Shown here in pieces: positions 10,302 to 58,800 of a DNA stretch of 64,000 nt (position 1 is its first letter; every line of letters begins with the position of its first letter). This DNA comes from Candidatus Tayloriibacteriota bacterium. GTDB taxonomy: Bacteria > Patescibacteriota > Minisyncoccia > Phycocordibacterales > HO2-43-120. Under the pieces are notes generated by a model. The model did not search any database. It saw nothing but the letters and a program-made list of their open reading frames with translations, and was not told where the DNA came from. Made by a program: the position numbers and the translations under genes. The stretch covers positions 10,625 through 74,624 of the forward strand of contig JBDTMN010000003.1 of assembly GCA_039934295.1 (NCBI GenBank), read 5' to 3'.

Positions 10302-10329
10302 GGCATAGGACATAATCTGCCAAAATTTT

Positions 10330-11158: not shown

Positions 11159-11186
11159 CATTTACAAAAATAGAAAAGCGTAATGA

Positions 11187-11798: not shown

Positions 11799-11808
11799 AA
11801 TAGAATGA

Positions 11809-12311: not shown

Positions 12312-12350
12312 ACATTTATAGTTATGAATTTCTCAAAAAAAGCAATTTTG

Positions 12351-12998: not shown

Positions 12999-13010
12999 AG
13001 ATTTAAAAGA

Positions 13011-13289: not shown

Positions 13290-13302
13290 GTCAATTGAAT
13301 AA

Positions 13303-34731: not shown

Positions 34732-35193
34732 TTATTTTAATTCAAACAAAGAAACTCTTTTTTCGAGTCCAACAAATTCCTTGCGGTCAACTTTAGTTTT
34801 CAGAGATTCTTTGATTGTTTTTACATCACTCTTCACGATGGTCATGTCTATTGCTAAATTGCCGATCATTTCCGTATGAGATTTATGAGTTTTAGAATCG
34901 TTGCCGAGAATTTCAGAATGTTTAGCGAGAGTTTCAGAATGCTTGTCAAGAGTTTTAGTATGGTTATCGAGAATTTCAGAATGTTTATCAAGAATTTTTG
35001 TATGCTTACCAAGAGTTTGCATAATATCAGTATACTGCTCCGCAACGACTTTCACTTTGTCCTGAAAATCTTCCGTAAGCGATCCCACATACCGTCTCAT
35101 ATCTTCATCTGACCTCTTATTTAGAGTATCAATATGTTGCTTTATCTCATCATTATATGGTTTTAAGATTTTTTCAATTTCAGAATTTTTCAT
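34732..35193 (-). CDS. Coiled-coil protein with tandem heptad-like DKHSEIL repeats
   Basis: KHTKILDKHSEILDNHTKTLDKHSETLAKHSEILGN. Confidence 0.4.
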   Translation of the reverse strand: MKNSEIEKILKPYNDEIKQHIDTLNKRSDEDMRRYVGSLTEDFQDKVKVVAEQYTDIMQTLGKHTKILDKHSEILDNHTKTLDKHSETLAKHSEILGNDSKTHKSHTEMIGNLAIDMTIVKSDVKTIKESLKTKVDRKEFVGLEKRVSLFELK

Positions 35194-35435: not shown

Positions 35436-38400
35436 TTACTGACCGGGCACCGCATCCGAGGACATTTCCGATTCTGGAGGCACATCTACACTTGGAAGAA
35501 GAGGTGTTTCTCCTTCCAAATCTTCCGGAGAAGTAGAGGGAATATCCGTTTCTGGTTCCGGCTCTGGCACCCCTAATGTTGACGGAGTAGATGACGAAAT
35601 GACCGATGTATCATCGGGTGCTTCCGAATCGGAAGAAGGAGTGCTTGAAGCTGTAGAAGTGCTCGTTGGAGACAGGGCTGGAACATGTATCTCCAAAGAA
35701 GTGGTGCTTGATGCTGTAGGCGTGGTAGGTAAAGATGGGACGGATATGTCCGAAGGAGACGTTTCTACCGGTATTTCTGGAGCAGTCGTTACCATGCTCT
35801 CACACTGTCCTTCGGAAGTTTTCGTTTCTCCGTGCACAATTTTCAAACAGTAAGGGTCACCAGTCGCTTCATCGAAAAGAGTAATGCCCGAAGGTTTCTC
35901 CTTGCTTCCAACCTGTATCTCATCCGTCTCCAGTCTTCCGAAGATGCCCAAAGCGGATGTCACTTTTGCCACCACCCACTCCCCCGCCGACTGCACAAGC
36001 TCTTGCACAGCGGAAGCAACTCGAGTGATGAATGATGGAGATGATGAAGCAAGGGTATCGGCAGTTGAGGAAGCAATAAGGAGAGCGGTTGAGGAAGCGA
36101 TGGATGTTATGAATTTTTTATCAGAGGTGAGCTTGGATGCAAGAGTGGAGTCGAGAGTGAGGAGTGAAGACTGGAGGTCGCTCGTAGAACTTGCGATATC
36201 GGCAATCTTAGAGTCAAGAGAGCTGAAGTTTTCGTTCACTTTCTTGTCAGTTGCGTCAAGAGCTAGAGCTAGACTAGAAACTGTCTGGAGAGAGGAAGAA
36301 AGAGAAGAATTCAAAAGTCCAACGTTCGTCGAAAGTGACTCTGCGGTTGTGGAAGCGAGAGAAGCGAGGGAGGCATTGTGTTCTCCGAGCTCGGCTGTCG
36401 AACTTGCGAGCGAGCCGATTTGACCTTGCTGTTCCTGTATAGCTTTGGTAAGGATAGAGGTGAGGTCTTCGTAGCGAACTCCGCGAGGGGTAACTCCATC
36501 TGTGTCGGTGAAGACGAGTCGGGGGTCAACTTTGACAACGTCTTCGGCAATGAGACCGACATGTTGGTCGTTGCTTCCAATGTAGCTGAAGGAGACGGGA
36601 CGGAGAGCATTCACCATGTCGAGAGCGCTTAGGGAGAGCGTGCTGATGTCGTGCTTGAACCGCTCCGATGATGTGGTGCAGGTTTGGGCTCCCGTGTTGA
36701 CTTGGACTTCATTTTGAGCACTCAAACAGAGAGCTGAACCTGATGTGGTTTCCGCGGTCAGGCCGTCAAAGGCGACGGTGCCGGTGACGGAGAGTTTACG
36801 CCAAGGGGAGGTAGTGGCGATGCCAACGTTGCCAGTTGGAAATAGTACATTTCCAGCTGATGTTTGATTTATATCAATGTAAGAAACTGTTCCTGCAGCG
36901 TTTCTGACTAGGAATCCACCACTATCAAATGCAAAGGCACCAGAGGTAACCAATTTTCCATTTGCCCCACCTGTGCTCATAAGTTGTGGCCCACCATCAA
37001 TAAGAAACCCTTGATTGTTAACTGCGGGCATATTGATACTTCCATTCACAGTTAACTTTTGGGTTGGAGTTGTCGTGCCGATGCCGACACTGCCTGTATT
37101 TCTTATTACAAAATCAGATGAGGCGGCAAAACCTGTATTATCCATGGTGCCAGTAGTTTGAATTTTGAAACCAACGAAATTTCTTTGGTATCCCAACTGA
37201 ACTGACCCTTGATCTACCGTAAACTTTGCTAACGCTGCAGTAACTGAACTCCCTCCTGTCCCTTGGATTAAAGCCTGAGGAGTTGATCCTATATTATTTA
37301 AATGCAAAAGAGCTGAGGGAGTTGTCGTTCCAATCCCGACGTTACCAGAGGTATCTATTCGCATTCTTTCTCCATTCACTCCTGAAAATATATACCCATT
37401 CGCTCCACTTTGATTACCAAAAAATTCCAAATAACCTGTATTTGCTATTCTACTAATATCGTAGGTAAATGTGGGGCCACCACCTCCGTTTCCGACTCTT
37501 AATTGCTTTCTGTCAAAGCTGGCATTCGAAAGTGGTCCGATCTCAAGCATGGTCTGTGGATTTGTCGTCCCCACCCCCACATTCCCACTATCCAAAATCG
37601 TGAACAAAGGACTGTTGCTGGAATTCGTCGTCTGGAAATTTATGCCTGTGGTCAAACCCGCACCTTTCACGGAAAGTTTCGCGAATGGTGAAGTGGTCCC
37701 GATTCCTACATTGCCTCCATTCAATACAACTAATTTAGAATCTGCATACAAATAATCATCACTTGAATTTAAGGCGGCCATCACTAAATTAGCATTGCCT
37801 GCAGCATTGAGAGATTGGTACTGTTGCGTGTTTGGTACTCGAATACTTCCTCCGAATAGGACTCTGCCGTCGACTGACGTGGTAATAGTGTTTTGTGGAG
37901 TTCCATCTTGAAGAACGAACATCGAAGTGTTGGCTCCAACACCCATAGCTAACCCAGAAGTTCCCGCAAACATAGTAAACGACTTCCCACCCACTCCCGT
38001 ATTGGTAATCTTAAGGGCTGGAGAGACAGTGCCAGAAATTTCTAAAAGTTGGGTAGGATTGCTTGTTCCAATGCCGACTCTGCCTAAATTATTTATTTTC
38101 ATCATGGGGCCTGTTGCATTCGCAATGCTCAAAAGATCGCCCCCGTTTCCATTCGACCAGGCACTAAGCATACTTAATGAAGTGAACCCGACAGCGGGAG
38201 AGTTGTTAATGCTGATTGCTCCCTTATTTACACTGCCCGGACCAGTATCGATGTTAAGTACGTTTACCCCCGCAGGACCTCCAATCCCCACATTCCCCGA
38301 TGTCGCCAAAAAGATTGACGATGTCGCGGTCAAGGTTGTTCCGTTCGCCGAGTAGTAAGGAATTTGTCCTGTCGTTCCGCTTCCAACTGCACCACCCAAA

Positions 38401-41400
38401 CAACTCGTGCCGTCGATTGAGAAGCAAGGTGACGTTATTCCTCCCGCAAAAGTTGAAGTGGCATTTGAAGAAGTGGCGGTAAACGAACCCGCAAGAGCAT
38501 TTGTGCCCAAGTCTGACGAGCCGTTGACGGACAATTTTCTCCACGGTGAAGTGGTGCCAATCCCGACGTTGCCTGTGAAATTAACACGCATGACTTCGGA
38601 AGATGAAGTTGCATTATTTGCCGTGTTGAAAGTTAGAGCTCCTGAAATACCACTTGCGCCTCCTACAATTTTGGTGGCAATTATTGAAGCAAGTTCAGTT
38701 TGCACGCCGCCAGTATCAAGAAGGCCCCCAAAAGAAATCCTTACACCGCTTCCGAGCGAGGTGGAGTTGTTCGCCAAAATAAGAGGCGTTGTCGGCACTA
38801 ATGCGACAGAGTTAAATATCGAAACAGTGTCACTGACAACTCCATTTGACGACCCAAAGTTAACAGCTTTGTTTGAATTTGCAGTGTTTGGTGAAGAAAT
38901 CGAGAAGGTATCCGAGGAATCTCCCACTTGCCGTATCCCAAATGCTCCTAAACCATTAAATCCAAATTGATAGGAAGCATTCGCTGCGTTCGCTCTCTGG
39001 AACGCCATATATCCAGTAGCCCCACCGCTTGAGCCAATCCTAAGCCTCATAAGTTCTCCTTGTGCAGCGGTATCAATAGTTTTCCCGATACCCAAACTGC
39101 CATTGATATCCGTGAGGAAACTCGGGTTAGTCAAGCCAATCCCTACATTCCCTCCTCCTGTGGCAAATGTTGCGCCCCCCGCAAAAGTCGAGGTCGCCGT
39201 TGTTGAAGTGGCATTGAAATATTCTGCAACTACAGGACCGACGACGGAAAGTTTTGCGAAAGGCGAAGTGGTGCCAATGCCGACGTTGCCATTCGATAAT
39301 ATTCTCATCCTTTCTGTGTTGTTGGTTGCAAAAAGCATTGGGTTCGCCCCGTTTGTTTTAAGAATCAGATTATTGGTTGCGGCCACTTGGGCAGTATCAA
39401 AGTTACTAAGGCCAAAAATCGTGCCGGAATTTGTCGCTGACCCCTGTAAAATAGACACGCTCGCATTACCACCTCCACTAGAATTATAAAGCGATAGTGC
39501 TGAATATCCACCAGCTCCCGCGTTATACACCTCAATGCCTCCGAAACTCGTGTTGTTGGCTTTTATAACAACTGCCGTTCCTGAAAACACAGGACCTCCA
39601 TAACCGCCTACATCAAGAAGAGCTTGAGGACTCACCGTTCCAATCCCAACTCTCCCATTCTGCGCCAAAAAGATTGACGATGTCGCTGTCAACGTCGTTC
39701 CGTTCGCCGCGTAGTAAGGAAACTGTCCCGTCGTTCCGCTTCCAACCGCGCCACCCAAGCAACTCGTGCCGTCGATTGAGAAACATGATGCTCTTATGCC
39801 TCCGGCAAAAGTCGAGGTCGCCGTTGTCGAAGTGGCATTGAAATATTCTGCAACTACAGGACCGACGACAGAAAGTTTCGCGAAAGGCGAAGTGGTGCCG
39901 ATCCCGACGTTGCCATTATTAAGAATAGTGAGGAGTGCTGTTCCATCAATATTTACACGTCCAGTTGAAGATCCTTTAGCAATCTGGAATATACCAGTTC
40001 CATCATTGTCACTGTCTATTGCAATTTGCAGGTTGCTCACCGCTGAGATGTTTTGTCCTCCCGTAAATGTTTGGCCCACGCGCATTTTCGATACTCCAGT
40101 TTCTAATGATTCAAAATATGCGGACTGCCCAGACATCGAATCAACGACTATGCGTGGACCTCCCAACGAGTCGAACTGTGCTCGTATCTGACCTAGACCT
40201 GTATCCAGGGAACGGAAAACAGCAGCGGCACCGCCAGAGAGATTTGTATTGGTAAAGCGAGCAACCCCCCCCGCACCTCCGTCTGCCTCAACGTCCAACT
40301 TAAAAGTAGGAGACGTCGTTCCAATCCCCACACTCCCACTATCCAAAATAGTAAACAGCGGACTGTCGCTGGAATTCGTCGTCTGGAAATTTACTCCTGT
40401 CGTCAAACCCGCACCTTTCACGGAAAGTTTTGCCAGTGGAGAAGTAGAGCCGATACCAACATTCCCATTCTGCGCCAGAAAGATTGACGAAGTCGCGGTC
40501 AACGTCGTTCCGTTCGCCGCGTAGTAAGGAAACTGTCCCGTCGTTCCGCTTCCAACTGCGCCACCCAAACAACTCGTGCCGTCGATTGAGAAACATGAGG
40601 CTCTTATGCCTCCAGCAAAAGTTGAAGTGGCATTTGAAGAAGTTGCGGTAAATGAACCCGCAAGAGCGTTCGTGCCCAAGTCTGATGAGCCTTTTACGGA
40701 GAGCGTGCGCCATGGAGAAGTGGTCCCGATACCGACGTTGCCATCATTCCTCACTGTAAACAGATTGGTGTTTGCGCTGTTGTCCACGCGAAAGGCGTTG
40801 GTTGCCGATGTCGCTCCCGTTCCTCGAATGTGAAGTCGCGCAGAAGGAGCTATGGTGCCAAAACCATGTAATGTCGCGCCACCATTTGCGCCATCAGTAT
40901 CAAATCCATATACGTATGAGTCACTTGCTGAAATCGCAGTGTTCGATCCAAATACTGCAGATCGAGCGCCGGATACATTAAGAGCCGCTCCAAATCCTAT
41001 CGAGTCTGCGTTAGAGATAATCGAATTTCTCCCTACGACTACCGCACTTGAGCTACTTGCAGTTGCTTGTGCGCCCGACCCTATGACAACTGATCGAAAT
41101 CCTCGTGATTGAGCGGCATATCCAACAAGCACTGTATCGGATTCAGCACTAACTGCTGTCGCACCGATAACAATATTTTTAGGCTGGTCAGCTAGAGATT
41201 TTACACCATAGCCTATCAATACATTGAAATATGAGTTGCCCGTCGCCACAGTTTCAATATTATTCCCTAACAGTACTGATACTCCTAAACCTGTTCCCGT
41301 AATTATATTATTACCGATGACGAGATTATCGTCACCAGGGTGGGAGGGATAAGGTTGATTAGATATTACTATTGAATTATCAACGCTCGAAGCTTGAAGA

Positions 41401-43880
41401 CTCTGTTGACCGACAATACTTAGTTGTTGGGTCGGCGTCGTCGTCCCAATCCCCACATTCCCCGATGTCGCCAAAAAGATTGACGATGTCGCTGTCAACG
41501 TCGTGCCGTTCCCCGCGTAGTAAGGAAACTGTCCCGTCGTTCCGCTTCCAACTGCGCCACCCAAACAACTCGTGCCGTCGATTGAGAAACAAGGTGACGT
41601 TATTCCTCCCGCAAACGTCGAGGTCGCCGTTGTCGAAGTGGCATTAAAATATTCTGCAACAACTGCACCGACTACAGAAAGTTTGGCGAAAGGTGAGGTG
41701 GTGCCAATGCCAACATTGCCCGCATTGTAAAATATGTTTGAGCCGGAAGTCGTCCACTGGCTTCCAATAAAGGGCGAACCGTTCTGGAGAAATGTTCCAT
41801 TGAAGTTGAGATTTCCTCCGACGGACAGATTGCCTGCGAATGTTGAAGTGGCAGCTGTAGAGGTCGCCGTCAAGTATGCAACGGTCGGAGAAGACGAAGC
41901 TAAGAGCGCTCCTGTGCCTCCGCTTGAAAACAGCCAACCCTGTCCGAATGAAGTCGCGCCGGTGCCACCGTTAGCAATACCGAGAGTTCCGGAGACGCTA
42001 GCGAGATTCGAGGTAATGTTCAGCGATGAAGTCGCTACAAGGTCATATCCTCCGGATGCATTTCCAAGAAGAAGCTGTCCGAGTGAGGGAGGAGTAGAAG
42101 TTCCAGTGCCTCCATAGAGCACTCCGATTGATGTGGTGGCAGAGACTGTGCCGTTATTGGCTTGAAGAGGTCCGTTCAATGCATCAATGGAGAGTCCTCC
42201 GTTCATTGTTTGCAGAGCAGTGAAGGTGTTGGCCGTGTACGTCTTGGGAATAGTAGTTGAGCCGTTCACGAAAGAATTGACGAGAGTATTGGAAAAGAAA
42301 AGATTGGTGGAACCTTGGACGAGATTGTCAGAATTAATGTTGAGAGAAGAAGTTGCAACAGCTCCCACGAGACCGTTCGTGCCAAAGAGAAGTCCGTTCA
42401 ATGTGTCCAAGGTAGTATTCCCTGTTACGGCAAAGTCTCCACCGATGGTCTGGCCACCTGTCACAAGAGAGCCGAAGCGAGCAGTGCCATCTACATCAAG
42501 GTCAAATTGGGGAGTAGTGGTGCCAATGCCTACGCGGTGGTTCACTGAATCAATGAAGAGCGTATCGGTGTCGAAGGTGGAATTTCCTGCAAAGGTGGAT
42601 GTTCCGTTGATAGTGAGCTCGCTTCCGGAAAAAGTGGAGTTGGTGATGGTGGCTCCGGTGATTGTGGGATTGGTGAAGGTGCCATTGTTTGAATTTGAAT
42701 TTGAGTCAGAGCTTGAGTTTGATCGTCTGATACTGTCAAAAATTCGGTCGGTCTGGAGGGATTCGTGGAGAGCAAGACCGTAGAGTTGGTTCTGGAGATT
42801 CGTGAAAAGAGCGTCGACGTAGGATTGTGGGACACCTTGCGTAGTGTAGGTGGTGTAGTAGGTAGGGTTTTGGGTGATGTTTGTGGTAGACGGGTTGTTC
42901 TGAAAAAGAGAAAAGAGAGGAGAAGGCGTGGGGGAAGAGATGGGCGCAGGCGTGATTTGCACGGTTGGTTTCGGACAATATGCAGGTGTGGCTCCGGGCA
43001 TGAAGGGGTCGACGAAACATCGAAGTTTCTGCCACCAGTTCAACAGGGTGAGCGAGAGAGAGTCGGTAACTGTAGCGACAGAGTTTGTGACTGAAGCTAC
43101 GGAGTTCGTGATTGTAGTAATGGAGACATTGGGCTCGCTCTTTTTGGGACAATAGGAGGGAGTGGCCCAGGGAACAAAGGGGTCAATGACGCATCGAAAC
43201 TTCTGCCACCAGGATAAGCGTGCGGGTTGTGAAGCGGTGTCGGAAAGTGAGATGTCTGCGAGAGCAAGAGGGACAGATGCGAGTGAAGCGTCTGCAAGGG
43301 GAAGAGATGCGAGTGAAGAATCGGCAGGAATGTCTTCGGAGAGGACGGTGGAGTTAATTTTTTCTCTCGGATTGTCGAAAGTGCTCACGAAGCTTGCGAC
43401 AGGAGCTGTTTCGATGATTGCGAGGTGGGAGAGAGTAGTGAATTGATTTTGAAGAGAGACGTAGAGCGCGTTGAGATAGGTTGCGTAAGACTCGGTGACT
43501 TCTTCAAGATTGAATTGGGGAACGTAGATTGGGTTTTGGGTGATGGGAGGAGAGGAGAGCGAGAGAGATTGCGGGGAGAGGGCCGCGTCCGCAACGGACG
43601 CGGCATAATTACCTTCCCCATTCGCTACATGAATGCCAAGAGGAGAAGGAAGAGCGGTGAGAACACTTGTTAGGTATCCTTCTTGGAGAGAGTAAGAGAA
43701 GAGAGAAATACAACAGGTGGCTCCGAATACTAAAAAAGAAAAAATAGTTGAAAAACCCCCGGCCGTATTTTGTAATCGCCTTCGCATAAGCCATATTTTA
43801 TCATAGAAGCATTGGCAATACTTAAAAAAAAGTGGGGATAAACTAGGGTCGTCGATTCTTGCAAAAAAAATCCCGTCCAC
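35436..43880 (-). CDS. Giant (about 2800 aa) tail-fibre-like repeat surface protein with C-terminal phage S74 intramolecular-chaperone (autoproteolytic) domain; likely true start at the internal Met near 43787
   Basis: N-terminal TM/signal, then many ~70-aa repeats (NVGIGTTSPFAKLSV .. ATSTFAGGI .. CFSIDGTSCLGGAVGSGTTGQFPYYAANGTTLTATSSIFLA). The SSERFKHDISTL..LRPVSFSY segment matches the tail-spike S74 chaperone motif SDxRxK..I. A coiled coil and an S/T/P-rich tail follow. Confidence 0.8.
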   Translation of the reverse strand: MDGIFFARIDDPSLSPLFFKYCQCFYDKIWLMRRRLQNTAGGFSTIFSFLVFGATCCISLFSYSLQEGYLTSVLTALPSPLGIHVANGEGNYAASVADAALSPQSLSLSSPPITQNPIYVPQFNLEEVTESYATYLNALYVSLQNQFTTLSHLAIIETAPVASFVSTFDNPREKINSTVLSEDIPADSSLASLPLADASLASVPLALADISLSDTASQPARLSWWQKFRCVIDPFVPWATPSYCPKKSEPNVSITTITNSVASVTNSVATVTDSLSLTLLNWWQKLRCFVDPFMPGATPAYCPKPTVQITPAPISSPTPSPLFSLFQNNPSTTNITQNPTYYTTYTTQGVPQSYVDALFTNLQNQLYGLALHESLQTDRIFDSIRRSNSSSDSNSNSNNGTFTNPTITGATITNSTFSGSELTINGTSTFAGNSTFDTDTLFIDSVNHRVGIGTTTPQFDLDVDGTARFGSLVTGGQTIGGDFAVTGNTTLDTLNGLLFGTNGLVGAVATSSLNINSDNLVQGSTNLFFSNTLVNSFVNGSTTIPKTYTANTFTALQTMNGGLSIDALNGPLQANNGTVSATTSIGVLYGGTGTSTPPSLGQLLLGNASGGYDLVATSSLNITSNLASVSGTLGIANGGTGATSFGQGWLFSSGGTGALLASSSPTVAYLTATSTAATSTFAGNLSVGGNLNFNGTFLQNGSPFIGSQWTTSGSNIFYNAGNVGIGTTSPFAKLSVVGAVVAEYFNATSTTATSTFAGGITSPCFSIDGTSCLGGAVGSGTTGQFPYYAGNGTTLTATSSIFLATSGNVGIGTTTPTQQLSIVGQQSLQASSVDNSIVISNQPYPSHPGDDNLVIGNNIITGTGLGVSVLLGNNIETVATGNSYFNVLIGYGVKSLADQPKNIVIGATAVSAESDTVLVGYAAQSRGFRSVVIGSGAQATASSSSAVVVGRNSIISNADSIGFGAALNVSGARSAVFGSNTAISASDSYVYGFDTDGANGGATLHGFGTIAPSARLHIRGTGATSATNAFRVDNSANTNLFTVRNDGNVGIGTTSPWRTLSVKGSSDLGTNALAGSFTATSSNATSTFAGGIRASCFSIDGTSCLGGAVGSGTTGQFPYYAANGTTLTATSSIFLAQNGNVGIGSTSPLAKLSVKGAGLTTGVNFQTTNSSDSPLFTILDSGSVGIGTTSPTFKLDVEADGGAGGVARFTNTNLSGGAAAVFRSLDTGLGQIRAQFDSLGGPRIVVDSMSGQSAYFESLETGVSKMRVGQTFTGGQNISAVSNLQIAIDSDNDGTGIFQIAKGSSTGRVNIDGTALLTILNNGNVGIGTTSPFAKLSVVGPVVAEYFNATSTTATSTFAGGIRASCFSIDGTSCLGGAVGSGTTGQFPYYAANGTTLTATSSIFLAQNGRVGIGTVSPQALLDVGGYGGPVFSGTAVVIKANNTSFGGIEVYNAGAGGYSALSLYNSSGGGNASVSILQGSATNSGTIFGLSNFDTAQVAATNNLILKTNGANPMLFATNNTERMRILSNGNVGIGTTSPFAKLSVVGPVVAEYFNATSTTATSTFAGGATFATGGGNVGIGLTNPSFLTDINGSLGIGKTIDTAAQGELMRLRIGSSGGATGYMAFQRANAANASYQFGFNGLGAFGIRQVGDSSDTFSISSPNTANSNKAVNFGSSNGVVSDTVSIFNSVALVPTTPLILANNSTSLGSGVRISFGGLLDTGGVQTELASIIATKIVGGASGISGALTFNTANNATSSSEVMRVNFTGNVGIGTTSPWRKLSVNGSSDLGTNALAGSFTATSSNATSTFAGGITSPCFSIDGTSCLGGAVGSGTTGQIPYYSANGTTLTATSSIFLATSGNVGIGGPAGVNVLNIDTGPGSVNKGAISINNSPAVGFTSLSMLSAWSNGNGGDLLSIANATGPMMKINNLGRVGIGTSNPTQLLEISGTVSPALKITNTGVGGKSFTMFAGTSGLAMGVGANTSMFVLQDGTPQNTITTSVDGRVLFGGSIRVPNTQQYQSLNAAGNANLVMAALNSSDDYLYADSKLVVLNGGNVGIGTTSPFAKLSVKGAGLTTGINFQTTNSSNSPLFTILDSGNVGVGTTNPQTMLEIGPLSNASFDRKQLRVGNGGGGPTFTYDISRIANTGYLEFFGNQSGANGYIFSGVNGERMRIDTSGNVGIGTTTPSALLHLNNIGSTPQALIQGTGGSSVTAALAKFTVDQGSVQLGYQRNFVGFKIQTTGTMDNTGFAASSDFVIRNTGSVGIGTTTPTQKLTVNGSINMPAVNNQGFLIDGGPQLMSTGGANGKLVTSGAFAFDSGGFLVRNAAGTVSYIDINQTSAGNVLFPTGNVGIATTSPWRKLSVTGTVAFDGLTAETTSGSALCLSAQNEVQVNTGAQTCTTSSERFKHDISTLSLSALDMVNALRPVSFSYIGSNDQHVGLIAEDVVKVDPRLVFTDTDGVTPRGVRYEDLTSILTKAIQEQQGQIGSLASSTAELGEHNASLASLASTTAESLSTNVGLLNSSLSSSLQTVSSLALALDATDKKVNENFSSLDSKIADIASSTSDLQSSLLTLDSTLASKLTSDKKFITSIASSTALLIASSTADTLASSSPSFITRVASAVQELVQSAGEWVVAKVTSALGIFGRLETDEIQVGSKEKPSGITLFDEATGDPYCLKIVHGETKTSEGQCESMVTTAPEIPVETSPSDISVPSLPTTPTASSTTSLEIHVPALSPTSTSTASSTPSSDSEAPDDTSVISSSTPSTLGVPEPEPETDIPSTSPEDLEGETPLLPSVDVPPESEMSSDAVPGQ

Positions 43881-43907
43881 AACAAAGTCGTGGACGGAGA
43901 TGGGGAA

Positions 43908-44450
43908 TCACCAGTTCCAAAATATTGGATGCCGATGCCCAAAAGATTTGAGCTCCGGTGGCTTCACAGCATAGTCCAGCTTGCAGACTAAGCAGGTGTA
44001 ATGAAAATGGCACTGGTGCACTATTTTCCCCGGATCCTCACTTTCTCTTTTGGGAAAATCATCCCACCAGCCGGGACGACTAGCCGAGTGTCTTTTAAAT
44101 TTCCAGGGAGGAACTTCTCGCCAATAGTTCCTCCGAACAAACCATCCCCCAAAAAGATTTCTTTTCTTTTTGACCGAACCATCCTTTTGTGTAACTTCCC
44201 TGATTGAACAGCGGGGACAACGGCGATGAGCTCGGCGCACTATCCGAAATCCCACAACGCACGCCACGACGAGAACCGGAAAAACAGTCCAGAAAGCGCG
44301 GTACTTCCACGCAAAAATGAGCGAGATAAGCGTCACGAGAACAGCAGTCGTCTCCCATGCGATAAAAAGCCACCTTTTCAGGGACTCGATTTCTGATTTT
44401 GTGCGGTGAACATCTCGTACATGAGCCAATCCGTTTCCAAAAATTTTCAT
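43908..44450 (-). CDS. Membrane protein with Cys/His-rich C-terminal region
   Basis: Two TM helices; CPRC..C.FHYTCLVC cluster. Confidence 0.4.
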   Translation of the reverse strand: MKIFGNGLAHVRDVHRTKSEIESLKRWLFIAWETTAVLVTLISLIFAWKYRAFWTVFPVLVVACVVGFRIVRRAHRRCPRCSIREVTQKDGSVKKKRNLFGGWFVRRNYWREVPPWKFKRHSASRPGWWDDFPKRESEDPGKIVHQCHFHYTCLVCKLDYAVKPPELKSFGHRHPIFWNW

Positions 44451-44668: not shown

Positions 44669-46087
44669 TTGAGACACGTGACCGCCCATACCGCGACAAA
44701 ATATCATCCTCACGTAAAACTGATTTTCATCGGCAGTTTTCTTTTTCTTGTTTTCGCTTCCGCGGCTGCGATGGGCTTCAATACGAAGTTAAAATATGGC
44801 CAAGGCAGAAATGCATCCACTCTCCTTTACGCTCTCGATAGATATACAGAAAACTCGGAACTCTTGCAGGGAAAAATCCAGGCGGAAAAATATTTAAAAA
44901 CAAGAACAATCGCCGATGATACGATTGAAGCCCATATACCATCGGTGGGAAAATTTATTTCGGCTGACCTCGACCACATGGAGCTCGCGCTCTACGAAAA
45001 TCATCTGCTCTTGAAAAAGTACCCCATTATCGCCAAAGGAAAGCCGGGCTCATTTTGGGAAACTCCGAGCGGAGACTATCAGATTCTTGCCAAAGTGGGA
45101 ACACACTTCTCATCGGTGGGAGAGGTGTACATGCCGTGGAGCATGCAGTTCAACGGCAATTTTTTCATCCATGGCTGGCCCTACTATCCCGACGGAAGAG
45201 ATGTTGCGCTTGGATATTCAGGAGGATGCATTCGCATGAAAACAGATGACGCCAAAGAAATTTACGAATTTTCAAAAACAAGCACTCCCATTTTCGTCTA
45301 CGAAAAAAGCGACGAGATGGCAGAAACTCGCGCACTGTTTTCTTTGAAGAATATTCCTCCCCCGGAGATTTCAGCCCAAGCCTACATCGTCGCCGATGTG
45401 AACACGGGAGAGGTTTTTCTTGACAAGAACATCGACACTCCCATGCCCATCGCCTCTTTGACCAAACTCATGACGGCAATCGTAGCCAATGAAGTAATCA
45501 TGTTCGACCGAAAAATCACTATCACTCCGGAAGTTGTCGAAACACTGGGTGAAAGCGGAAACCTGAAGGCGGGAGAAGTGATGACCGCAAACGACGTCCT
45601 CTATCCCCTTTTGATGGAATCATCGAACGACGCCGCACGGGCGTTTTCAGCATACTATGGCGAAAGCAGTTTTATTTCGCACATGAACAAAAAAGCCAAG
45701 GCGATTGGAATGAAAAACACCACCTACGCGGACTCGTCTGGAATCTTGAGTGGCAATACTTCCACCGTGTATGACCTCTACATCCTCTCCAAATATCTGA
45801 AAAATAATAAATCATTCATACTCAACATCACCCGCCTCCCGACGAAAAAAATCACATCGTCTTTCCAAGTGCACAACTTCGGCAATTTCAATGTATTTTC
45901 AGCAGAGAAAAATTTCCTCGGAGGGAAAACCGGTTACACCAGAGCGGCCAACGGAACGATGATTTCGCTTTTCGAAATTCCCATCGGCAACGAAAAAAGG
46001 AATATTGCTTTCATCGTTCTCTCATCCCAAAATCAGGAAAAGGACGTGCGCGCACTTCTTACGTGGTTTGAAGAAGCGGCAAGCTGA
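44669..46087 (+). CDS. Fusion protein: L,D-transpeptidase (YkuD) domain plus D-alanyl-D-alanine carboxypeptidase (S11) domain
   Basis: YkuD catalytic HGW..YSGGCIRM; S11 motifs ASLTKLMTA (SxxK), ESSND (SxN), GGKTGYT (KTG). Confidence 0.75.
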   Translation: MRHVTAHTATKYHPHVKLIFIGSFLFLVFASAAAMGFNTKLKYGQGRNASTLLYALDRYTENSELLQGKIQAEKYLKTRTIADDTIEAHIPSVGKFISADLDHMELALYENHLLLKKYPIIAKGKPGSFWETPSGDYQILAKVGTHFSSVGEVYMPWSMQFNGNFFIHGWPYYPDGRDVALGYSGGCIRMKTDDAKEIYEFSKTSTPIFVYEKSDEMAETRALFSLKNIPPPEISAQAYIVADVNTGEVFLDKNIDTPMPIASLTKLMTAIVANEVIMFDRKITITPEVVETLGESGNLKAGEVMTANDVLYPLLMESSNDAARAFSAYYGESSFISHMNKKAKAIGMKNTTYADSSGILSGNTSTVYDLYILSKYLKNNKSFILNITRLPTKKITSSFQVHNFGNFNVFSAEKNFLGGKTGYTRAANGTMISLFEIPIGNEKRNIAFIVLSSQNQEKDVRALLTWFEEAAS

Positions 46088-50258: not shown

Positions 50259-50682
50259 TGATATATAGTAGCAGAAAATAGTATAGCGTGTAACCTGCCT
50301 ACCCCGTTGAGCCTCTCCACTACTGGGTAACTCGTACCATCAGAAAAGATGTATAGAAGCTAAAAAATCCTCCATGAGGATTTTTTAGTAGGGTCATTTG
50401 AAAGTATTGCCCTAGTCAAAAACTAGGTGGATGCCCTCAATTGCACTAATCAGATGGCGTTTTACGGTCTTCATCATGGCGCAACAATTTGAGCTTCCTA
50501 AATATGCTTTAATCTAGATAATACTCCAAATAACCCTGCTCTCATTATAGACTCGTAAGAATGGAATGCAAGCTAAAATAGGTGTAAGGTTTTAGGTTTA
50601 AGGTGTAAGTAAATAAAATGAAAAAAATTAAAAATCCCAAGGGTAACCCTTGGGATTTTTAACCTAAAACCTAATTAATTCA

Positions 50683-50860
50683 TGCCGACATTAAGAAATG
50701 TCGGCATCTCCCAATCTTGCCCACGAGTTCTCGAGTGGGTGCAAGATTGAGGATCCCGAGCGTGGCGAGGGACAGAAATTGTGCGCCGACATTAAGAAAT
50801 GTCGGCATCCTCAATTTTTCATCCACGAATTAAAAATTCGTGGGAAAAATTGGGACCTAC
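50683..50860. repeat. Structured intergenic region: two identical hairpins gccgacatt-aagaa-atgtcggc flanking an imperfect 16-bp hairpin, then catccacgaatt-aaaa-attcgtggg
   Basis: Inverted repeats at 50683-50706 and 50786-50808; central caatcttgcccacgag/ctcgagtgggtgcaagattg. Confidence 0.5.
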
Positions 50861-52631: not shown

Positions 52632-55412
52632 CTACAAACTGCTCTCCGGCGGCTTTTTCTCGTACTTTCTCATAATTTCTTCCTCTACATCTGCCCTCTC
52701 TTTGCCGAACTTCAAGTATGAGAGTTCCTTCAATTTATCGACATTTTCTTTCTTGCCCGTGTCTGGCGACACGGTTTCAATATTAAAGGGCTTCACCGGC
52801 CGACCGTTGCTCAAAAGCTTGAGATAGGCGTTTCGGTTATCTATATTCATAAGGTCCTTCATTGAAAATACCGGAGAAAACTGCTTCTCCAAATATTCCG
52901 CGTCTTCCGCGCCGACACGAAATGCGGCAATGGAGCCCACGTTTCCAAAAACGGAATCTCGAATGCTCTCCTCAAGCTGGGCGATAAACTGATGCGCGAT
53001 AATGAGCCCAAGCTTGTATTTCCTCGCCTCGGAGAGAATCGTCGAAATCGAATTTGTCGTAACATTCTGAAATTCATCAATGTAGAGATAAAAAGGAGGC
53101 AGATTTTTGTGGAACGAATCAACCCGAGAGAGCGCCGCCATCAAAATTTTGCCGACCAAAATGAGCCCCAAAAGATTGGCGTTGATTTCCCCTAAACGAC
53201 CCTTTGCAAGGTTGACCAACAGAATTTTTTTCTCGTCCATTATCTGCCTGAAGTTAAAACTGGACTTTTCTTGAGCGATAATCGGCCGCATGATGTCATT
53301 CGAGAGAAACACGTCGAATTTCGAAGTGATGTACGGCACGATATTGGCGAGCGAGGCTTCCCCACCGGCTTTCTCCGCCACCTCTCTCCAAAATTGAACG
53401 ACAATCGGATTCTTGCACCGCGAGAGCTTCAATTCCCTGAAACTTTTTTGCGCCAATACTCTCGAGACATCGAGAAGGGTGTTCCCGCTCTCCGGGTCTT
53501 CCATCGAAAGCAGAACTGCGTTTCTGAAATATTGTTCGAACATAGGACCTCCCGCCGTTTTCATATCGAAGAGCTTGTTGAAGATGGAGAGCATCTCGTT
53601 CACCACAAATGTTTTTTGCTCCGGAAATCTAATGTCGTACTCGAGCATGTTTAAAGCCATCGGGCGGGCGGTGTAGCTTGGGTCAAAATAGATGATGTCC
53701 TCGTATCTCTCTTTTGGCACCATGGCTAAGACATCCTGAATGTCGGAGCCGTGTGGGTCGATGAGGCAGACCCCCTCGCCATTCGCGATATCCTGGGCAA
53801 TCATGTTTTTCAAGAGCGTCGTTTTTCCCGTACCAGTCTGGCCGATAGTATAGAAGTGCCGGAGACGGTCATCGGGTCCAATATAAATCGGAGTTTCTGT
53901 GTTCCTGTTTTTGTTTATCCCAAGAAGAATTCCGGTAGATGCGAGACCGATTGGAGCGGGAGCGCTCGCCGCTTTCGAGATTTTCAACTGTGGAGCCGAT
54001 TTGATTTCAGTCGATGGCAAATGCATCATGGTGGTAAGCTCCTTCAGACTCAACGGAATTTTTTCATCCTCGTTATAGAGTCTGAAAGAAAAATCTTTAA
54101 GCAGTTTATTCAGTTTCCCCTTTTTGAGTTCTGTAAATGCAAGCCTGTTGCCGTGGCTGTTTTCAAACTGGTTGAACGCGGACTGCACGTCGCGCAAAAT
54201 AGACAGCGCCCTCGATTCCTCTTTTGCGGAAGCGACGATACGAATGTTCGTAGCGACGATTGGACTTGCAATCTTGAGTTTGATATCTTCCACCACTAGT
54301 TCGTCTACATTTCTGAGTTCTTTCTGCTTTTCTTTCTCCTCCTTTTCCTTCTTATTGGTGAGATCTCTCGCAACCTCCTTGCCAAATTTAAAGACGTGCC
54401 CAAAGACTGTTTCAGGAAAATCTATGGCTTCTTTCACCTTAACGCCTTTCCCGATTCGCTCAAGCGCGTACTTGTATTTGGAAGTATACTCGTCCCCGAC
54501 AGGCTTAAAGACAATCTGAATTGCCGCTCCCTCGCCGTCCCGCTCGATTTTAGAAAAGCTATTCAGAACCACGTTCAGAGGATCGTGGTCAAACTGGTCA
54601 TATGTTTTGAGAGAAAAAATAGGATTCTTCGCTGACTCGGCGGACGAGCCGAGAGAGACCCCTCGACTGTCGAAAATGTTGTAGTCATCCTTTCGCTCGG
54701 AAATCCTAGCATTATGGAAAATAGAGAGAACCTGTTTTTCAAAAAGATCGCGCTTGGAGTCCGGCACCGCCGCGAAGAAAATAAATTCGTTACTGTGGTT
54801 TTCAACCGCGAGCTCAATGGTAAAGTAGTTTGGCCCCCTGTCACTTCTGTCGGACACGGAGAGCATACCTGCGTAAAATTGCTCCATTGAGGACACGAGC
54901 TCCTTGAGCGTCTTTGGATTTTCTTCCTTTGCCTTCTCCGGCAGAGTGATTTCGTAAAGAGTCATTTCGAGAGCGCGAAACAGCGGGTCTTTTTCTTTTA
55001 TTCCTTTCACTTCAAATCCGGCCTTAATATATTGAACCAAAAAACGCTCGAAATCATCTTCAAGATGGGGACTCCCGAGCTCTTCGATGATTGAAAGAGT
55101 ATTTTTAATGCCCTTTTCCTCGAGTATTCCGAGAAATTCACTCATCTTCTGGTCGTGCTCTTCGGGCGTGAGGTCAAGTACAATTTTCCCGCGCTCCTCC
55201 TTTGACATTTCAAATTGAGGGTGGAGAACCTCGCCTCCCGGAACTTGTTTATACTTTTGGACCTCTTCAGAAATGACCTGCTCCTTTGGTTTCTCGATGC
55301 CTTTTTCTTTGAGCTCTGATTCTCTTTTCGCTACTTCCCCGCGCAAAAAAGAAAGCTCCTCCTCGGGAGTGCTGAATTTCTTCTCAACGGCAGGGAAAGT
55401 AGATTCACTCAT
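52632..55412 (-). CDS. VirB4/VirD4(TraG/TraD)-like type IV secretion / conjugative-type ATPase (AAA_10-like C-terminal domain)
   Basis: Walker A TIGQTGTGKTTLL, Walker B LYIDEFQNV; about 480-aa N-terminal domain without a TM helix. Confidence 0.55.
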   Translation of the reverse strand: MSESTFPAVEKKFSTPEEELSFLRGEVAKRESELKEKGIEKPKEQVISEEVQKYKQVPGGEVLHPQFEMSKEERGKIVLDLTPEEHDQKMSEFLGILEEKGIKNTLSIIEELGSPHLEDDFERFLVQYIKAGFEVKGIKEKDPLFRALEMTLYEITLPEKAKEENPKTLKELVSSMEQFYAGMLSVSDRSDRGPNYFTIELAVENHSNEFIFFAAVPDSKRDLFEKQVLSIFHNARISERKDDYNIFDSRGVSLGSSAESAKNPIFSLKTYDQFDHDPLNVVLNSFSKIERDGEGAAIQIVFKPVGDEYTSKYKYALERIGKGVKVKEAIDFPETVFGHVFKFGKEVARDLTNKKEKEEKEKQKELRNVDELVVEDIKLKIASPIVATNIRIVASAKEESRALSILRDVQSAFNQFENSHGNRLAFTELKKGKLNKLLKDFSFRLYNEDEKIPLSLKELTTMMHLPSTEIKSAPQLKISKAASAPAPIGLASTGILLGINKNRNTETPIYIGPDDRLRHFYTIGQTGTGKTTLLKNMIAQDIANGEGVCLIDPHGSDIQDVLAMVPKERYEDIIYFDPSYTARPMALNMLEYDIRFPEQKTFVVNEMLSIFNKLFDMKTAGGPMFEQYFRNAVLLSMEDPESGNTLLDVSRVLAQKSFRELKLSRCKNPIVVQFWREVAEKAGGEASLANIVPYITSKFDVFLSNDIMRPIIAQEKSSFNFRQIMDEKKILLVNLAKGRLGEINANLLGLILVGKILMAALSRVDSFHKNLPPFYLYIDEFQNVTTNSISTILSEARKYKLGLIIAHQFIAQLEESIRDSVFGNVGSIAAFRVGAEDAEYLEKQFSPVFSMKDLMNIDNRNAYLKLLSNGRPVKPFNIETVSPDTGKKENVDKLKELSYLKFGKERADVEEEIMRKYEKKPPESSL

Positions 55413-55837: not shown

Positions 55838-58800
55838 TTATTCTGGCAGGCCTTTTAATATAGTAATAATAAATCCTCTTTTTGCTTTACCTTCAAGAGT
55901 GCCGGGCAAATCTTTACCCACTTTCACGAGCAAATCCCTCACAGCTTTTCTTGCTTGGTCTCCTTTTCTTGATCCGGCCTTATTTCTTTCCAAATGACTC
56001 TTAAGAGCTTTTTGCAACTCTTCGACACTATTCGCCCCAAACGAGAAGTTTTTTAAAGCTTTGGTTATTTCGCCAGAAACTTTTCCGTCGACCGCATCGT
56101 CATTTCTCTTCTGCATCTCATCTTCATTTAATCCCTCAAGGAAATCGACACCCTCTTCGTCTTCCATTCTCTTCAACTCATCAAATTTCTCTTGAGCTTT
56201 GTCAGGGTCCATACCCGGACTCATGAGTTCCGCCAATTGGCTTTGGGCTTTCTCTATCGATATTTCCGAAATCCGCTTCCAAGAATCCAGACTCTCCAAT
56301 AACGATATCCTAATCTGTTTTGTTTGGTTTTCAAATTCTGTCCTTATCTTTGCAAAATTTTCACCTTTCGCGAGAGCCGCGAGACTCGCGGTAATGTTGT
56401 CGCTCACCGTCTTCAATTTTGCAACAGTTTCATCATGCGAGGAAACCTCGTTTTGAAATTTGCCCCCGAAGCCGGGAATCCACTCGCGAAGAAACTTTTT
56501 GAATCCGACATATTTAAATTCTCCTTTTTTCTTTGTAAGCGACTCCTTTTCTCCCTGCAATAGTCCTATTTTGGCTGCAAGGTCGTCAACACTCTTATTG
56601 CCGACAAGCTGTATTATTGCGGCCTCGTTGGCTTTAATTTCGGCTTGATTCTTCTTAATAGTGTCGAGAATATCCGCAAGTCGAATAATCTCTTCTGGAC
56701 TGTTTATGGACTTCGCATCAATTTCACCCTGAATCGCCTCGAGTTCTTCCGGAGTAAACTTACCTGAAACATTTTCAAAAAAGCCCTGAAATTCGCTCTT
56801 AAGCCCGCTTATAACTTTTTCTTTCTTGGTATACACCTCGAAAACTGACCGAATCTTGTCCGCGTCATCGTTTTCAATCCACTCCTCGCTTTCCGGATAT
56901 TGAGCGAGGAAAAGTGGAAATTTGGCGTCATAATTTTGCATCTGCCGAATGCTCATCGCCAGTATTTCCGCGTTCGTAACGCGTGATAGTGTTGCTCCCC
57001 TCATCACTGCCTCGGGCTCTCGCGTTGGTTCAGTTTTCGGCGGCTCAGCTTTAGGCACAGGTTCAGTTTTCAGTGGCTCTTCGGCTTTTGACACAACTGG
57101 TTCTACCGGCTTTTCGACAGGTTTTGGTTCTTCAGGAGGTTCGGTCATCAATAGAGCCTCTCCCGCTGATGGAATTTCCTCATCGGCAGGTTTCAAAGCT
57201 TCAGCATCATTTTTTGGCTCTCCCTTTCCTTCAAGAATTCTCCATGCCTCCTCTGGTTTGAGAGAGTCAATCTCACTTTGTGTTTTACCCATTCCTATTA
57301 GTCGTTCCTGCATATCTCGAGTAATCATAAAGGGTATACCTGCGTCCGCAGAGGATACCTCTCTCTTTGCTGTGGAATTAGAAGACTCTGACGTCAACGC
57401 TTCAGGTTGAGCGGGTAGCTTTTCTTCAGAAGGTGACGCTGGCGGCTTTGGAGCTAGGCCCAGCTCTAGAATTAATTGCTCTTCTTGAGCCAATTCTTCG
57501 GGCGACTTCTGAGGCAACTTTTCTTCAGGCGGTTTTTGTTCCGCAACACCTTCCTCGCCTGGTGGCTTTAAAATGACTGGAGGGGTCACTTCGGGGACAA
57601 CAGGAGCTGTGTCTTCAGGATTTGAAAGTGGAGCAATAGGTTCTGGTTTTTTAACACTTAGTTCGAGAGGTGTCAGATATTTGGCTTTCATGTATGCCTC
57701 TTCAAGCATGGAATATAAAGTTGGATTTTCTTCAATAATCCTTGCCGCTCTTTCCATAGTTTTATGAACATAGTCGTCAATATTTTCTTTTTTTTCTTTT
57801 GAGTCAGCTACTCCTGGTATGCTTTTTATTTCTTGAAAATTTTTATTTACTTCTGCCAAATTTCCTACCTCCTGGTCAGACTCCACAAATAACCTGCGAA
57901 GATAGCCTTTAACATTCCGATCAGAAAATAGCTTTATAAATGCGTCGAACGCGGAATATCTATACACTGGAGAAGTAGTTGATTTAACCTCTTCGAGTTT
58001 ATCTTTGATACGTTCTACCGCAACACTGCCCGCAAGCTCAACATTGTTAAAGACAATAGACGGTTCTTTCTCAAGTCGTTCGTATAAGTCCTCAAAATTT
58101 CTAACAGGTTTAGAAGATTCTGTTCGAGCGGGCTCGACATTTGCGGGTTTAGATTCAGAAGCGCCTATGGGATTTGGAGGGATTTCCTCTTTTTTTGGAG
58201 GAGGCTCAGCTTTTGCCGTTGTCTCTGGCGGTAGTCCTCCGGCTATTTTTCCTCTCTTTTTTCCTCCTTTTTTCTTTTCTCCTTCCCCTTCTTCCCCTTC
58301 TTCCCCCTTGAATCTAGTTTGATTCTTCCCTTTTCTCTCTTTTTTCTCTTTTTTCTCATCTCCAGATTCTGCATCATTTTTCAACAAAGGGGCATCGGGC
58401 TTTTTCGGCGCCCCAAAAGATTCATCGGCAAGATGAGTAACAAGAGGAGCTTCGCCTCCCTTTTTTTCTTCTGTCCCTATTTTAGGTGTTGCCTTCGATA
58501 CTTTTTCTCCCAAAAGTCTAAGCGAGTCAGATAAAGTGGTTTCTTTTTTTCCTTCGACAGGAATAGCTGAATCTTCAATCACACTCTTCTTAAATATCTC
58601 GTGCAATTCATTAGATGCCTTAATCAAACCTTCGTCCCCAGATTCAACTGCGATTTTAGCTCGCTTTTCAAAGAGGGCATCTGTATTTTCAATAACTGTT
58701 TTCCTTGGGTCTCCTACTTTTTTAGAAATTTCTGCCAACCGTTTAAGTATTTTCTCGTCCACTTTTCCAATATCTTTTTTTTGCGCTAGAGAGGCTTCCT

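Follow-up and report, generated by a model that had tools for sequence, protein, structure and literature searches.

The window analyzed here, a stretch of 64,000 nucleotides (nt) from contig JBDTMN010000003.1 of the Candidatus Tayloriibacteriota/Taylorbacteria assembly GCA_039934295.1, contains on its minus strand a single unbroken open reading frame (ORF) of 2814 codons at 35436-43880. We consider it fairly likely that this is a chromosomal gene, in a very small and probably symbiotic bacterium, for a 282-kDa trimeric surface fibre related to S74-terminated phage fibres and to the mosaic adhesive trimers (MATs), which is anchored at its N-terminus and whose tip is exposed by cleavage. The original prediction for this locus, made from the sequence without database searches, had proposed an ORF of about 2800 residues for a tail-fibre-like surface protein; the length is borne out, and the reading of the product holds in view of an S74 chaperone, a body homologous to known fibres and a cellular locus.

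Residues are numbered throughout along the 2814-codon ORF, the numbering of the annotated protein being that of the ORF minus 31. The 8.4-kb open frame, which lies in DNA of 41-50% G+C and has many homologues, is far beyond what would arise by chance. Its true start is almost certainly the ATG at 43787, which gives a gene as most likely expressed at 35436-43787 (minus strand), encoding 2783 amino acids (aa) and a stop codon, with a predicted full-length protein mass of 282 kDa. This product is identical to the NCBI entry MEO8637517.1, a “tail fiber domain-containing protein” of Candidatus Taylorbacteria encoded on a 96-kb contig. The GTG at 43880, with which the longer frame opens, is unlikely as a start codon because it falls within a terminator-like hairpin (43872-43898, minus strand; 12 bp, 7 of them GC, followed by a T-run) that closes the upstream gene; the first 31 codons of the ORF are probably untranslated.

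A search with the whole protein recovered 144 relatives at E<=1e-5, of which the 120 listed span 1,541-4,848 aa. Save for one Omnitrophota protein, the named sources among the relatives listed are unclassified bacteria or lineages of Patescibacteria, the latter under the labels Taylorbacteria, Campbellbacteria, Paceibacterota, Sungbacteria, Kaiserbacteria, Saccharibacteria, Pacebacteria, Minisyncoccia and Parcubacteria. About 70 relatives among the matches listed have an S74 domain near the C-terminus, a few of them in two tandem copies. Further, a genome scan found the capping-loop modules of the fibre body, described below, also in Pseudobdellovibrio, Armatimonadota, Phycisphaerae and others. 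The best match in the genome collection was a locus of the predatory Pseudobdellovibrio sp. HCB154 (9173-20220), where S74-terminated fibre genes for proteins of 1864 and 1780 aa lie in tandem; the fibre encoded at 14878-20220 in this organism is matched by Pfam YadA_head.

The S74 chaperone and the region that follows it

In a hidden Markov model (HMM) search the Pfam model PF13884 passes its gathering cut-off of 22 bits, the Peptidase_S74 core at 36513-36671 (minus strand; aa 2404-2456) scoring 41.3 bits (E=1.8e-10). The core opens with SSERFK, which conforms to the S-[DS]-x-x-x-K motif and supplies the predicted nucleophile, Ser2404 (codon 36669-36671), and the predicted base, Lys2409 (codon 36654-36656). 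Both residues and a GxIA motif are invariant in an alignment of the C-terminal regions of 13 relatives, and a profile made from this alignment matches solved S74 chaperones, namely 8JOV (5.7e-16), 6F45 (4e-13), the MYRF structure 7DC3 (1.7e-12) and 3GUD (1.4e-3). The protein can therefore be assigned to S74 at the level of sequence and catalytic motif, because of the Pfam score, the invariant dyad and the matches to solved S74 chains. The strings quoted for this region in the original prediction, SSERFKHDISTL, LRPVSFSY and HVGLIAED, are found in the translated ORF; its claim of a C-terminal S74 domain stands as to the domain but fails as to the position, since 358 residues follow the Pfam match. 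A single-chain AlphaFold2 model of the C-terminal region has a mean predicted local distance difference test (pLDDT) score of 53, with values of 67-84 in the S74 core, and in a Foldseek search of the PDB it retrieves 3GW6 at E=1.5-3.3 and nothing at E<=0.001.

By analogy with the behaviour of the S74 family, for instance the self-cleavage shown for the Bdellovibrio fibre Bd3182 at S782 (PMC10769870), the Ser2404/Lys2409 pair is predicted to support autocleavage. A cut at Ser2404 would take a C-terminal fragment of 411 aa (42.5 kDa, isoelectric point 4.2) off a mature chain of 2372 aa. In 70 relatives the predicted distance from the serine to the C-terminus has a median of 308 aa and ranges from 90 to 576 aa.

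The first ~12 residues downstream of the S74 core still belong to the beta part of the chaperone, and from about aa 2470 onward the sequence is S/L/A/T-rich, the post-S74 helical region as a whole occupying 36036-36512 (minus strand; aa 2457-2615). The AlphaFold2 model places a continuous helix at aa 2470-2583 (pLDDT 62-76) and further helices up to about aa 2642. Hydrophobic periodicity in this heptad-like stretch peaks at 3.55 residues; at period 3.5 the observed power is attained in only 0.5-1.7% of shuffled sequences. Compared with the helix of canonical S74 chaperones this one is much longer, and it probably forms a trimeric coiled coil.

The coil is followed by a conserved C-terminal two-Cys element (35793-36035, minus strand; aa 2616-2696) with the pattern SFIxRVAxAV..GEW..K.TA...G....D..TG..YC..I..G.....G.C, in which both cysteines (Cys2678 and Cys2693) are invariant. 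It is without a Pfam or NCBIfam model, and NCBIfam likewise holds no model for the fibre protein as a whole. An HMMER scan of 1.84 billion representative proteins recovered the element in 1,832 clusters at E<=1e-3 (345 at E<=1e-10), nearly always positioned 100-250 aa before the C-terminus. The S74 HMM detects an S74 domain in 57 of the 141 newly found carriers among the matches listed. Many short carriers are probably truncated gene calls, because six of ten carriers looked up sit on contigs shorter than 5 kb, while some longer carriers contain another pre-coil domain in place of S74. The element is a candidate new domain family. The protein ends in an acidic, Ser/Pro/Thr/Glu-rich low-complexity tail (35439-35792, minus strand; aa 2697-2814) with neither an LPxTG motif nor a hydrophobic anchor. 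An LPxTG sortase-anchored surface protein was considered and rejected, as the chain lacks [LIV]Px[TSA]G over its whole length and a hydrophobic segment at its C-terminus.

The fibre body and its kinship to MAT and phage fibres

The fibre body (36672-41720, minus strand; aa 721-2403) consists of 17 modules of 43-240 aa, every one of them opened by GNVGIGTTxPxxxLxV. Strict copies of the corresponding capping-loop motif, G[NSR]VG[IV][GA]TTxPxxxLxV, number 17 between aa 721 and 2350 at a spacing of 43-240 aa, with an additional, weaker one at aa 450, and the motif often has a beta-strand (for example ERMRI or LFTIL) ahead of it. Four of the modules, all on the minus strand, are Cys cassettes of 86-92 aa, which are 75-94% identical and each contain a Cys pair eight residues apart: m1 (41463-41720; aa 721-806; Cys764/772), m3 (40467-40742; aa 1047-1138; Cys1096/1104), m6 (39657-39914; aa 1323-1408; Cys1366/1374), which is 94% identical to the first copy, and m10 (38298-38573; aa 1770-1861; Cys1819/1827), which is 92% identical to the second. 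The best stretch of similarity to Pfam Big_15 (aa 739-795; E=5e-11) lies inside m1. All other modules belong, as divergent members, to a single family; with a module of 146 aa as the query, 673 copies are recovered in 114 of the best 120 of the 144 relatives. The longest module, m2 (40743-41462, minus strand; aa 807-1046; 240 aa), contains short xxVxIGxxA-type repeats resembling a YadA head, with no match to Pfam YadA_head.

The body had initially been described as dozens of repeats of ~70 aa. Instead, it has 17 (plus one) modules of widely differing length, and Tandem Repeats Finder detects no array in it, which rules out a regular tandem-repeat protein. Repeats at the DNA level, described at the same time as highly similar, are indeed present; they are dispersed and only moderately similar, with four copies of 293 nt (65-85% identity) and three of 120 nt (85-94%). 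The longest exact repeats measure 79, 59 and 47 nt, with spacings of 996, 810 and 3165 nt. As these spacings are all multiples of three, unequal recombination could lead to gain or loss of in-frame blocks.

A comparison of aa 721-2404 with all PDB sequences yields matches solely to two Bdellovibrio MAT fibres. The first is Bd2133 (8OND; E=1.6e-8), where ORF aa ~2128-2306 align with chain residues 83-249, i.e., two beta-helix modules or ~180 residues, with SERMRIDTSGNLGLGTAAPTSALHV of Bd2133 corresponding to GERMRIDTSGNVGIGTTTPSALLHL of the fibre protein; the second is Bd3182 (8OJN; E=3.8e-4). The C-terminal alignment profile also matches Bd2133, three times at the capping-loop motif, as well as four further MAT entries. 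Additionally, the body is matched by tail-fibre families of the PHROGs database (phrog_9942, E=8.4e-47; phrog_18345, E=4.3e-32), and among deposited phages the matches come mostly from cyanophages and pelagiphages and cover <=35% of the protein at 25-30% identity. The proposed likeness of the body to trimeric beta-helical fibres is accordingly supported by its homology to crystallised MAT fibres and by the matches to phage tail-fibre PHROGs. A single-chain AlphaFold2 model of aa 1310-1560 has a mean pLDDT of 58 and is confident solely at the motif hairpins, a pattern that would be expected of an intertwined trimer modelled as a single chain. In a Foldseek search of the PDB with this low-confidence model the top eight ranks are all MAT fibres (E=0.01-0.4, TM<0.2), followed by the triple beta-helices of T4 gp34 and phage hyaluronidase, none of them significant; the ranking of MAT fibres is not independent evidence, because Foldseek scores include sequence similarity.

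The MATs were described by Caulton et al. (2024; PMC10769870) as intertwined trimeric beta-helices with the capping-loop consensus V-G-G/N-pi-x-x-P-x-x-x-L, a loop that these authors also noted in MYRF. Strain HD100 has 21 MATs, of which 13 have S74 with an SDxxxK motif as their last domain; in every one of the 21 the signal peptide is directly followed by a conserved, beta-rich N-terminal domain of ~130 aa (PMC10769870). The supplement of that study includes MAT-like proteins from other predators and from Omnitrophica, and a term search of the supplements did not find Patescibacteria. Like the Taylorbacteria protein, the MAT fibres of the S74 subgroup, such as Bd3182 (8OJN/8ONB/8ONC), and Bd2133 (8OND) are encoded by cellular, non-phage genes for secreted fibres, with beta-helix modules capped by a V-G-x-G-x-x-x-P-x-x-x-L loop and, towards the end, an S74 domain with an S-x4-K dyad; they, too, occur as families of several genes in which the base is conserved and the tips are swapped. 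They differ from it in being about three times shorter (~1000 aa as opposed to 2783 aa) and in coming from a Gram-negative predator rather than a Candidate Phyla Radiation (CPR) lineage, taken to be monoderm. Further, they have the conserved ~130-aa N-terminal domain in place of a hydrophobic anchor and lineage-specific base, and a post-cleavage fragment of 141 aa (Bd3182) as compared with one of 411 aa that includes the extra Cys element and the S/T/P tail. The interspersed Big_15 Cys cassettes are another distinction of the Taylorbacteria protein, and its capping-loop motif has one residue more than the published MAT consensus.

Comparable relationships, with their own limits, are seen with three other groups. 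Phage fibres (K1F endosialidase, 3GW6; T5 pb1, 4UW8; S16 gp37, 6F45; 8JOV; phi29 gp12, 3GUD) share the S74 domain with the same catalytic motif and the capping-loop module ahead of it, as well as the tail-fibre PHROGs that match the body; they are phage-encoded and baseplate-attached, whereas the Taylorbacteria protein is far longer and is the product of a cellular gene with a predicted membrane-anchored N-terminus. MYRF (7DC3) resembles it in having an internal S74/ICA domain with a GRVGIxTxxPxxxLxV loop ahead and more protein after it. Nevertheless, this similarity is confined to a region of ~150 aa, and MYRF is a eukaryotic membrane-bound transcription factor in which the N-terminal cleavage product is a DNA-binding domain rather than a fibre. 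Finally, the YadA-like trimeric autotransporters are likewise long trimeric adhesive fibres, some relatives of the Taylorbacteria protein have been so named by their sources, and module m2 is YadA-head-like. The polarity of the two is opposite, in that the YadA-like adhesins have a C-terminal beta-barrel anchor and the Taylorbacteria fibre an N-terminal one, and the latter has no YadA Pfam match. A trimeric autotransporter adhesin was rejected as a candidate, as neither YadA_anchor nor any other Pfam family besides S74 matches the C-terminal region and the sole hydrophobic segment is N-terminal.

The N-terminal base, probable surface location and proposed mechanism

The annotated protein opens with MRRRLQNTAGG, and the sole strongly hydrophobic stretch of the entire protein follows, as identified by a Kyte-Doolittle scan (43686-43763, minus strand; aa 40-65, with MRRR ahead). 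As far as can be judged from its sequence, this stretch indicates Sec-dependent export, with the N-terminus being either kept as a signal anchor or cleaved. It forms part of an N-terminal base (42471-43787, minus strand; aa 32-470), which holds two WWQKxRC...YC Cys-pair repeats (Cys230/244 and Cys288/302), a helical YVDALFTNLQNQ motif and S/N linkers. A Gly/Thr/Ser-rich pre-body region (41721-42470, minus strand; aa 471-720), just upstream of which lies the first, weaker capping-loop copy at aa 450, connects the base to the body. Leaving aside the untranslated leader and the hydrophobic N-terminal segment, the protein has eight close Cys pairs (i/i+8 to 16), namely 230/244, 288/302, the four in the cassettes, 2385/2401 and 2678/2693, a pairing pattern that is typical of extracytoplasmic proteins.

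The near neighbours of the gene are cellular, comprising a fused YkuD/S11 peptidoglycan enzyme, IF-3, a beta-CASP RNase and a YgjP-like peptidase, and DnaB, RecR, CysRS, SecY, Adk, Map and tRNAs are encoded further out. A PHROGs search with 10 neighbours found no capsid, portal, terminase, tail tube, baseplate or integrase, the sole ‘tail’ match being that of a 153-aa coiled-coil protein to a tape-measure family (E=1e-4). These housekeeping flanks, and the lack of phage structural genes among the 10 neighbours, agree with the earlier proposal of a cellular genome with no adjacent phage genes. Taken together, the lone signal-anchor helix at the N-terminus, the pairing of cysteines and the cellular surroundings of the gene indicate a cell-surface fibre and not a prophage gene.

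The ~440-aa N-terminal part has no counterpart in 118 of the best 120 of the 144 relatives and no match in a scan of GTDB representative genomes; with a Pseudobdellovibrio S74 fibre it aligns at the VGIGTT motif only. The N-terminal 439-689 aa match Taylorbacteria proteins only. P0273, a partial Taylorbacteria protein with LVIVD repeats, has three features of the base at 43-66% identity: the hydrophobic N-terminal helix, the WWQKFRC...YC repeat and a YVDALFTNLQNQLYGLALHESLQTDRIFDSIRRSN helix. Since it recurs in Taylorbacteria and is absent from the other relatives compared, the base is taken as a lineage-specific module rather than a version of the MAT N-terminal domain.

A second Taylorbacteria “tail fiber domain-containing protein”, MEO8637952.1 (2073 aa; 46-kb contig), comes from the same submission, its accession being 435 away from MEO8637517.1; by this accession proximity it is tentatively placed in the same metagenome-assembled genome. 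The two share exact blocks at residues 1-360, 419-523 and 529-628 in annotated-protein numbering, with further ones scattered in the body and three in the post-S74 coil, so that 1030 of 2783 residues lie in exact shared blocks of >=12 aa. The pre-body region is near-identical in both, while the two align at only ~40% overall across the last body modules, S74 and the remaining C-terminal sequence. This combination of a conserved base and a variable tip mirrors, at the sequence level, the pattern of MAT and phage fibres. A scan of viral contigs with the C-terminal 454 aa returned one weak S74-only match, which has no bearing on phage exchange.

These features can be combined into a proposed assembly pathway. 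The MRRR sequence and the 25-residue hydrophobic helix would route the chain via Sec and hold its N-terminus at the membrane, from where the ~440-aa base, with its disulfide-type Cys pairs, and then the Gly/Thr/Ser-rich region would extend outward. Three chains would trimerise by C-terminal nucleation through S74 and the coiled coil, and the ~17 beta-helical modules, each capped by its GNVGIGTTxPxxxL loop, would zip up. The Ser2404/Lys2409 cut would then free the 411-aa, 42.5-kDa piece made up of chaperone, coil, Cys element and S/T/P tail, thereby turning the last module into the exposed distal tip. By a rough scaling from the 550-angstrom model of the 922-aa Bd3182, the mature 2372-aa trimer might measure ~0.1-0.15 micrometres, and by analogy its tip could attach to glycans or proteins on the surface of a host cell or partner. 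Variation could come about by cassette shuffling, as MEO8637952.1 keeps an identical base and a near-identical coil and has another body and tip. Indeed, the modules shared with phage tail fibres and with the prey-recognition fibres of Bdellovibrio make the protein a good candidate for host recognition, and a role in host attachment appears reasonable by this analogy.

Several observations weigh against such a cleaved, host-directed fibre. The chaperone of endoNF has about 150 aa. The fragment predicted here is ~3 times the size of canonical chaperones (141 aa in Bd3182; PMC10769870). The coil and Cys element are also present in relatives with no detectable S74 and might for this reason have a role beyond being discarded. 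The N-terminal domain that defines the MATs was not found in a comparison made with a Pseudobdellovibrio fibre rather than directly with the HD100 N-termini; because of this the protein is not filed as a strict member of the MAT family, though by analogy it would work like a MAT fibre. Model quality is poor for both single chains run in AlphaFold2 (mean pLDDT 53 and 58), and neither gives a Foldseek match at E<=0.001. Finally, we know of no cultured Taylorbacteria or established host that would back a role in host recognition.

Among the alternatives, the fibre might be structural or self-directed, serving as an envelope or S-layer-like coat or in cohesion, biofilm matrix or mineral/organic attachment instead of host recognition. 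Such a role could draw on the fibrous look that giant membrane proteins give to the CPR cell surface (PMC8080830), on the failure to identify a receptor-binding domain of known specificity in the protein and on the lack of conserved partner genes in 39 related loci. Nevertheless, we consider it unlikely, given that the characterised homologues with the same module set, the phage and MAT fibres, recognise foreign cell surfaces, and that the conserved base and variable tip of MEO8637517.1 and MEO8637952.1 make up a pattern of diversifying recognition.

A second possibility concerns the cleavage itself: S74 could act as a nucleus for trimerisation and folding without cutting, in which case the coil, Cys element and S/T/P tail would stay on as the functional distal end. 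This would account for the conservation of the coil/Cys element in 1,832 representative clusters, including cases with no detectable S74, for its near-identity in the two Taylorbacteria proteins despite their differing S74 cores, and for the unusual length of the post-S74 region in relatives. On the other hand, the catalytic serine and lysine are invariant in 13 of 13 aligned relatives, every experimentally tested S74 domain cleaves, including that of the cellular fibre Bd3182 (PMC10769870), and a low-complexity acidic S/T/P tail would make an unlikely receptor-binding tip. An uncut fibre hence appears quite improbable.

It is very improbable that the gene model is in part an assembly artefact, in the form of a chimeric join or a wrong module count; MEO8637517.1 and MEO8637952.1 may be paralogues or alleles of one locus from two co-binned strains. 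The 100% identity of residues 1-360, together with the further exact blocks (1-1.9 kb), could be enough to confuse short-read assembly between the two. Yet mis-assembly within the gene is unlikely because its exact repeats, of up to 79 nt, are shorter than typical sequencing reads, the frame is intact across 8.4 kb, and many independent assemblies contain homologues of every part, arranged in the same order. The least credible reading is that of a tail fibre of an integrated prophage, tailocin or remnant thereof: although phage tail-fibre PHROGs and deposited phage fibres (25-41% identity) are matched by the body and the S74 region, and the NCBI name is that of a tail fibre, there are no virion or integrase genes among the 10 housekeeping-flanked neighbours searched with PHROGs, an N-terminal membrane anchor would be needless in a virion fibre, the best phage matches stay at <=35% coverage and <30% identity, and the closest relatives among the matches listed are giant proteins with mostly patescibacterial source names.

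Significance and other features of the window

In bioRxiv 10.1101/2024.11.25.624915, the means by which ultra-small CPR/Patescibacteria find and attach to their hosts are described as largely unknown beyond type IV pili. Giant CPR surface proteins have been described as likely host-attachment factors (PMC8080830, PMC13059738). Those of the epibionts Vampirococcus lugosii and Absconditicoccaceae resemble the Taylorbacteria fibre in being longer than 1,500 aa and in having an N-terminal transmembrane helix or signal peptide; they differ from it in containing fibronectin III, integrin, concanavalin A, fibrinogen C and adhesin-repeat domains (PMC8080830, PMC13059738). A term search of these two papers found no mention of S74, tail-fibre or MAT-type modules, and full-text literature searches that each paired one name for the CPR with one term for S74 returned no paper. 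The tail-fibre-like annotation itself is already known, and the proposed mechanism is a known one at a larger scale, with no new principle. What is new is the giant size, the CPR lineage, the different base and the extended, partly unannotated C-terminal module.

The locus thus ties the “giant surface proteins” of CPR genomes to the characterised S74 systems of phages and MAT systems of Bdellovibrio. This link yields testable predictions: the chain should be cut at Ser2404, a tip module should be exposed, the beta-helix should be trimeric, and proteins with a common base should exchange cassettes. Additionally, it points to a widespread, conserved C-terminal element that current domain libraries leave unmodelled. 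A bolder proposal, which as a joint claim we hold to be doubtful, is that families of giant S74/MAT-type fibres are the main recombination-diversified determinants of host range in Patescibacteria and that the post-S74 module might be a distinct functional unit. If so, the membrane base would be identical within a family, and in-frame repeats would serve to shuffle the bodies and tips, the fibres being used much as phages use their tail fibres. The coil, the two-Cys element and the S/T/P tail together might keep the C-termini in register and so let trimers of several thousand residues fold or, alternatively, be a released 42-kDa trimeric product with a role of its own.

Two small genes flank the fibre gene on the same strand. 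The upstream one (43908-44450, minus strand) encodes a Cys-rich protein of 180 aa with a hydrophobic, transmembrane hairpin and CxxC...CxxC motifs, and the downstream one (34732-35193, minus strand) the above-mentioned 153-aa coiled-coil protein, which has KHSEIL/KHTKTL repeats. Neither belongs to a Pfam family, and a tblastn comparison with the 39 related loci gave no match for these two proteins, two other small ORFs, the PBP or the N-terminal base. The fused peptidoglycan enzyme, a 472-aa protein joining a YkuD L,D-transpeptidase to an S11 D,D-carboxypeptidase, is encoded divergently from the fibre region at 44669-46087 (plus strand).

Elsewhere in the window, a second giant ORF of 2504 aa (13303-20817, minus strand) contains SpvB, FG-GAP, seven RHS repeats, Bact_surface_Ig-like and Gly_rich_2 domains and, at its C-terminus, a PGAP1-like alpha/beta-hydrolase; it resembles a polymorphic toxin of the RHS type whose tip is lipase-like, encoded in the same small genome as the fibre. 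At 52632-55412 (minus strand) lies a gene for a 926-aa VirD4/TraG-like coupling ATPase (DUF87, TrwB_AAD_bind, TraG-D_C), adjoined at 55838-58897 (minus strand) by one for a 1019-aa protein with no Pfam match, and the pair possibly belongs to the type IV secretion system that PMC12102498 describes for Patescibacteria. A LAGLIDADG_3 homing-endonuclease-like ORF (919-1617, minus strand) overlaps the 3' part of a tRNA-Leu(CAG) gene (881-965) on the same strand by ~47 nt. ARAGORN reports a 91-nt tRNA-like gene at 50641-50731 (minus strand) with an undetermined two-base anticodon ‘ct’; a tRNA with an intron, an aberrant one or a false call could account for it. Lastly, a 184-aa ORF at 10442-10996 (minus strand) has a partial match to indole-3-glycerol-phosphate synthase (profile positions 45-243 of 254) and, judging from this match, is a putative remnant of the tryptophan pathway, unexpected in a CPR genome, or a truncated gene.

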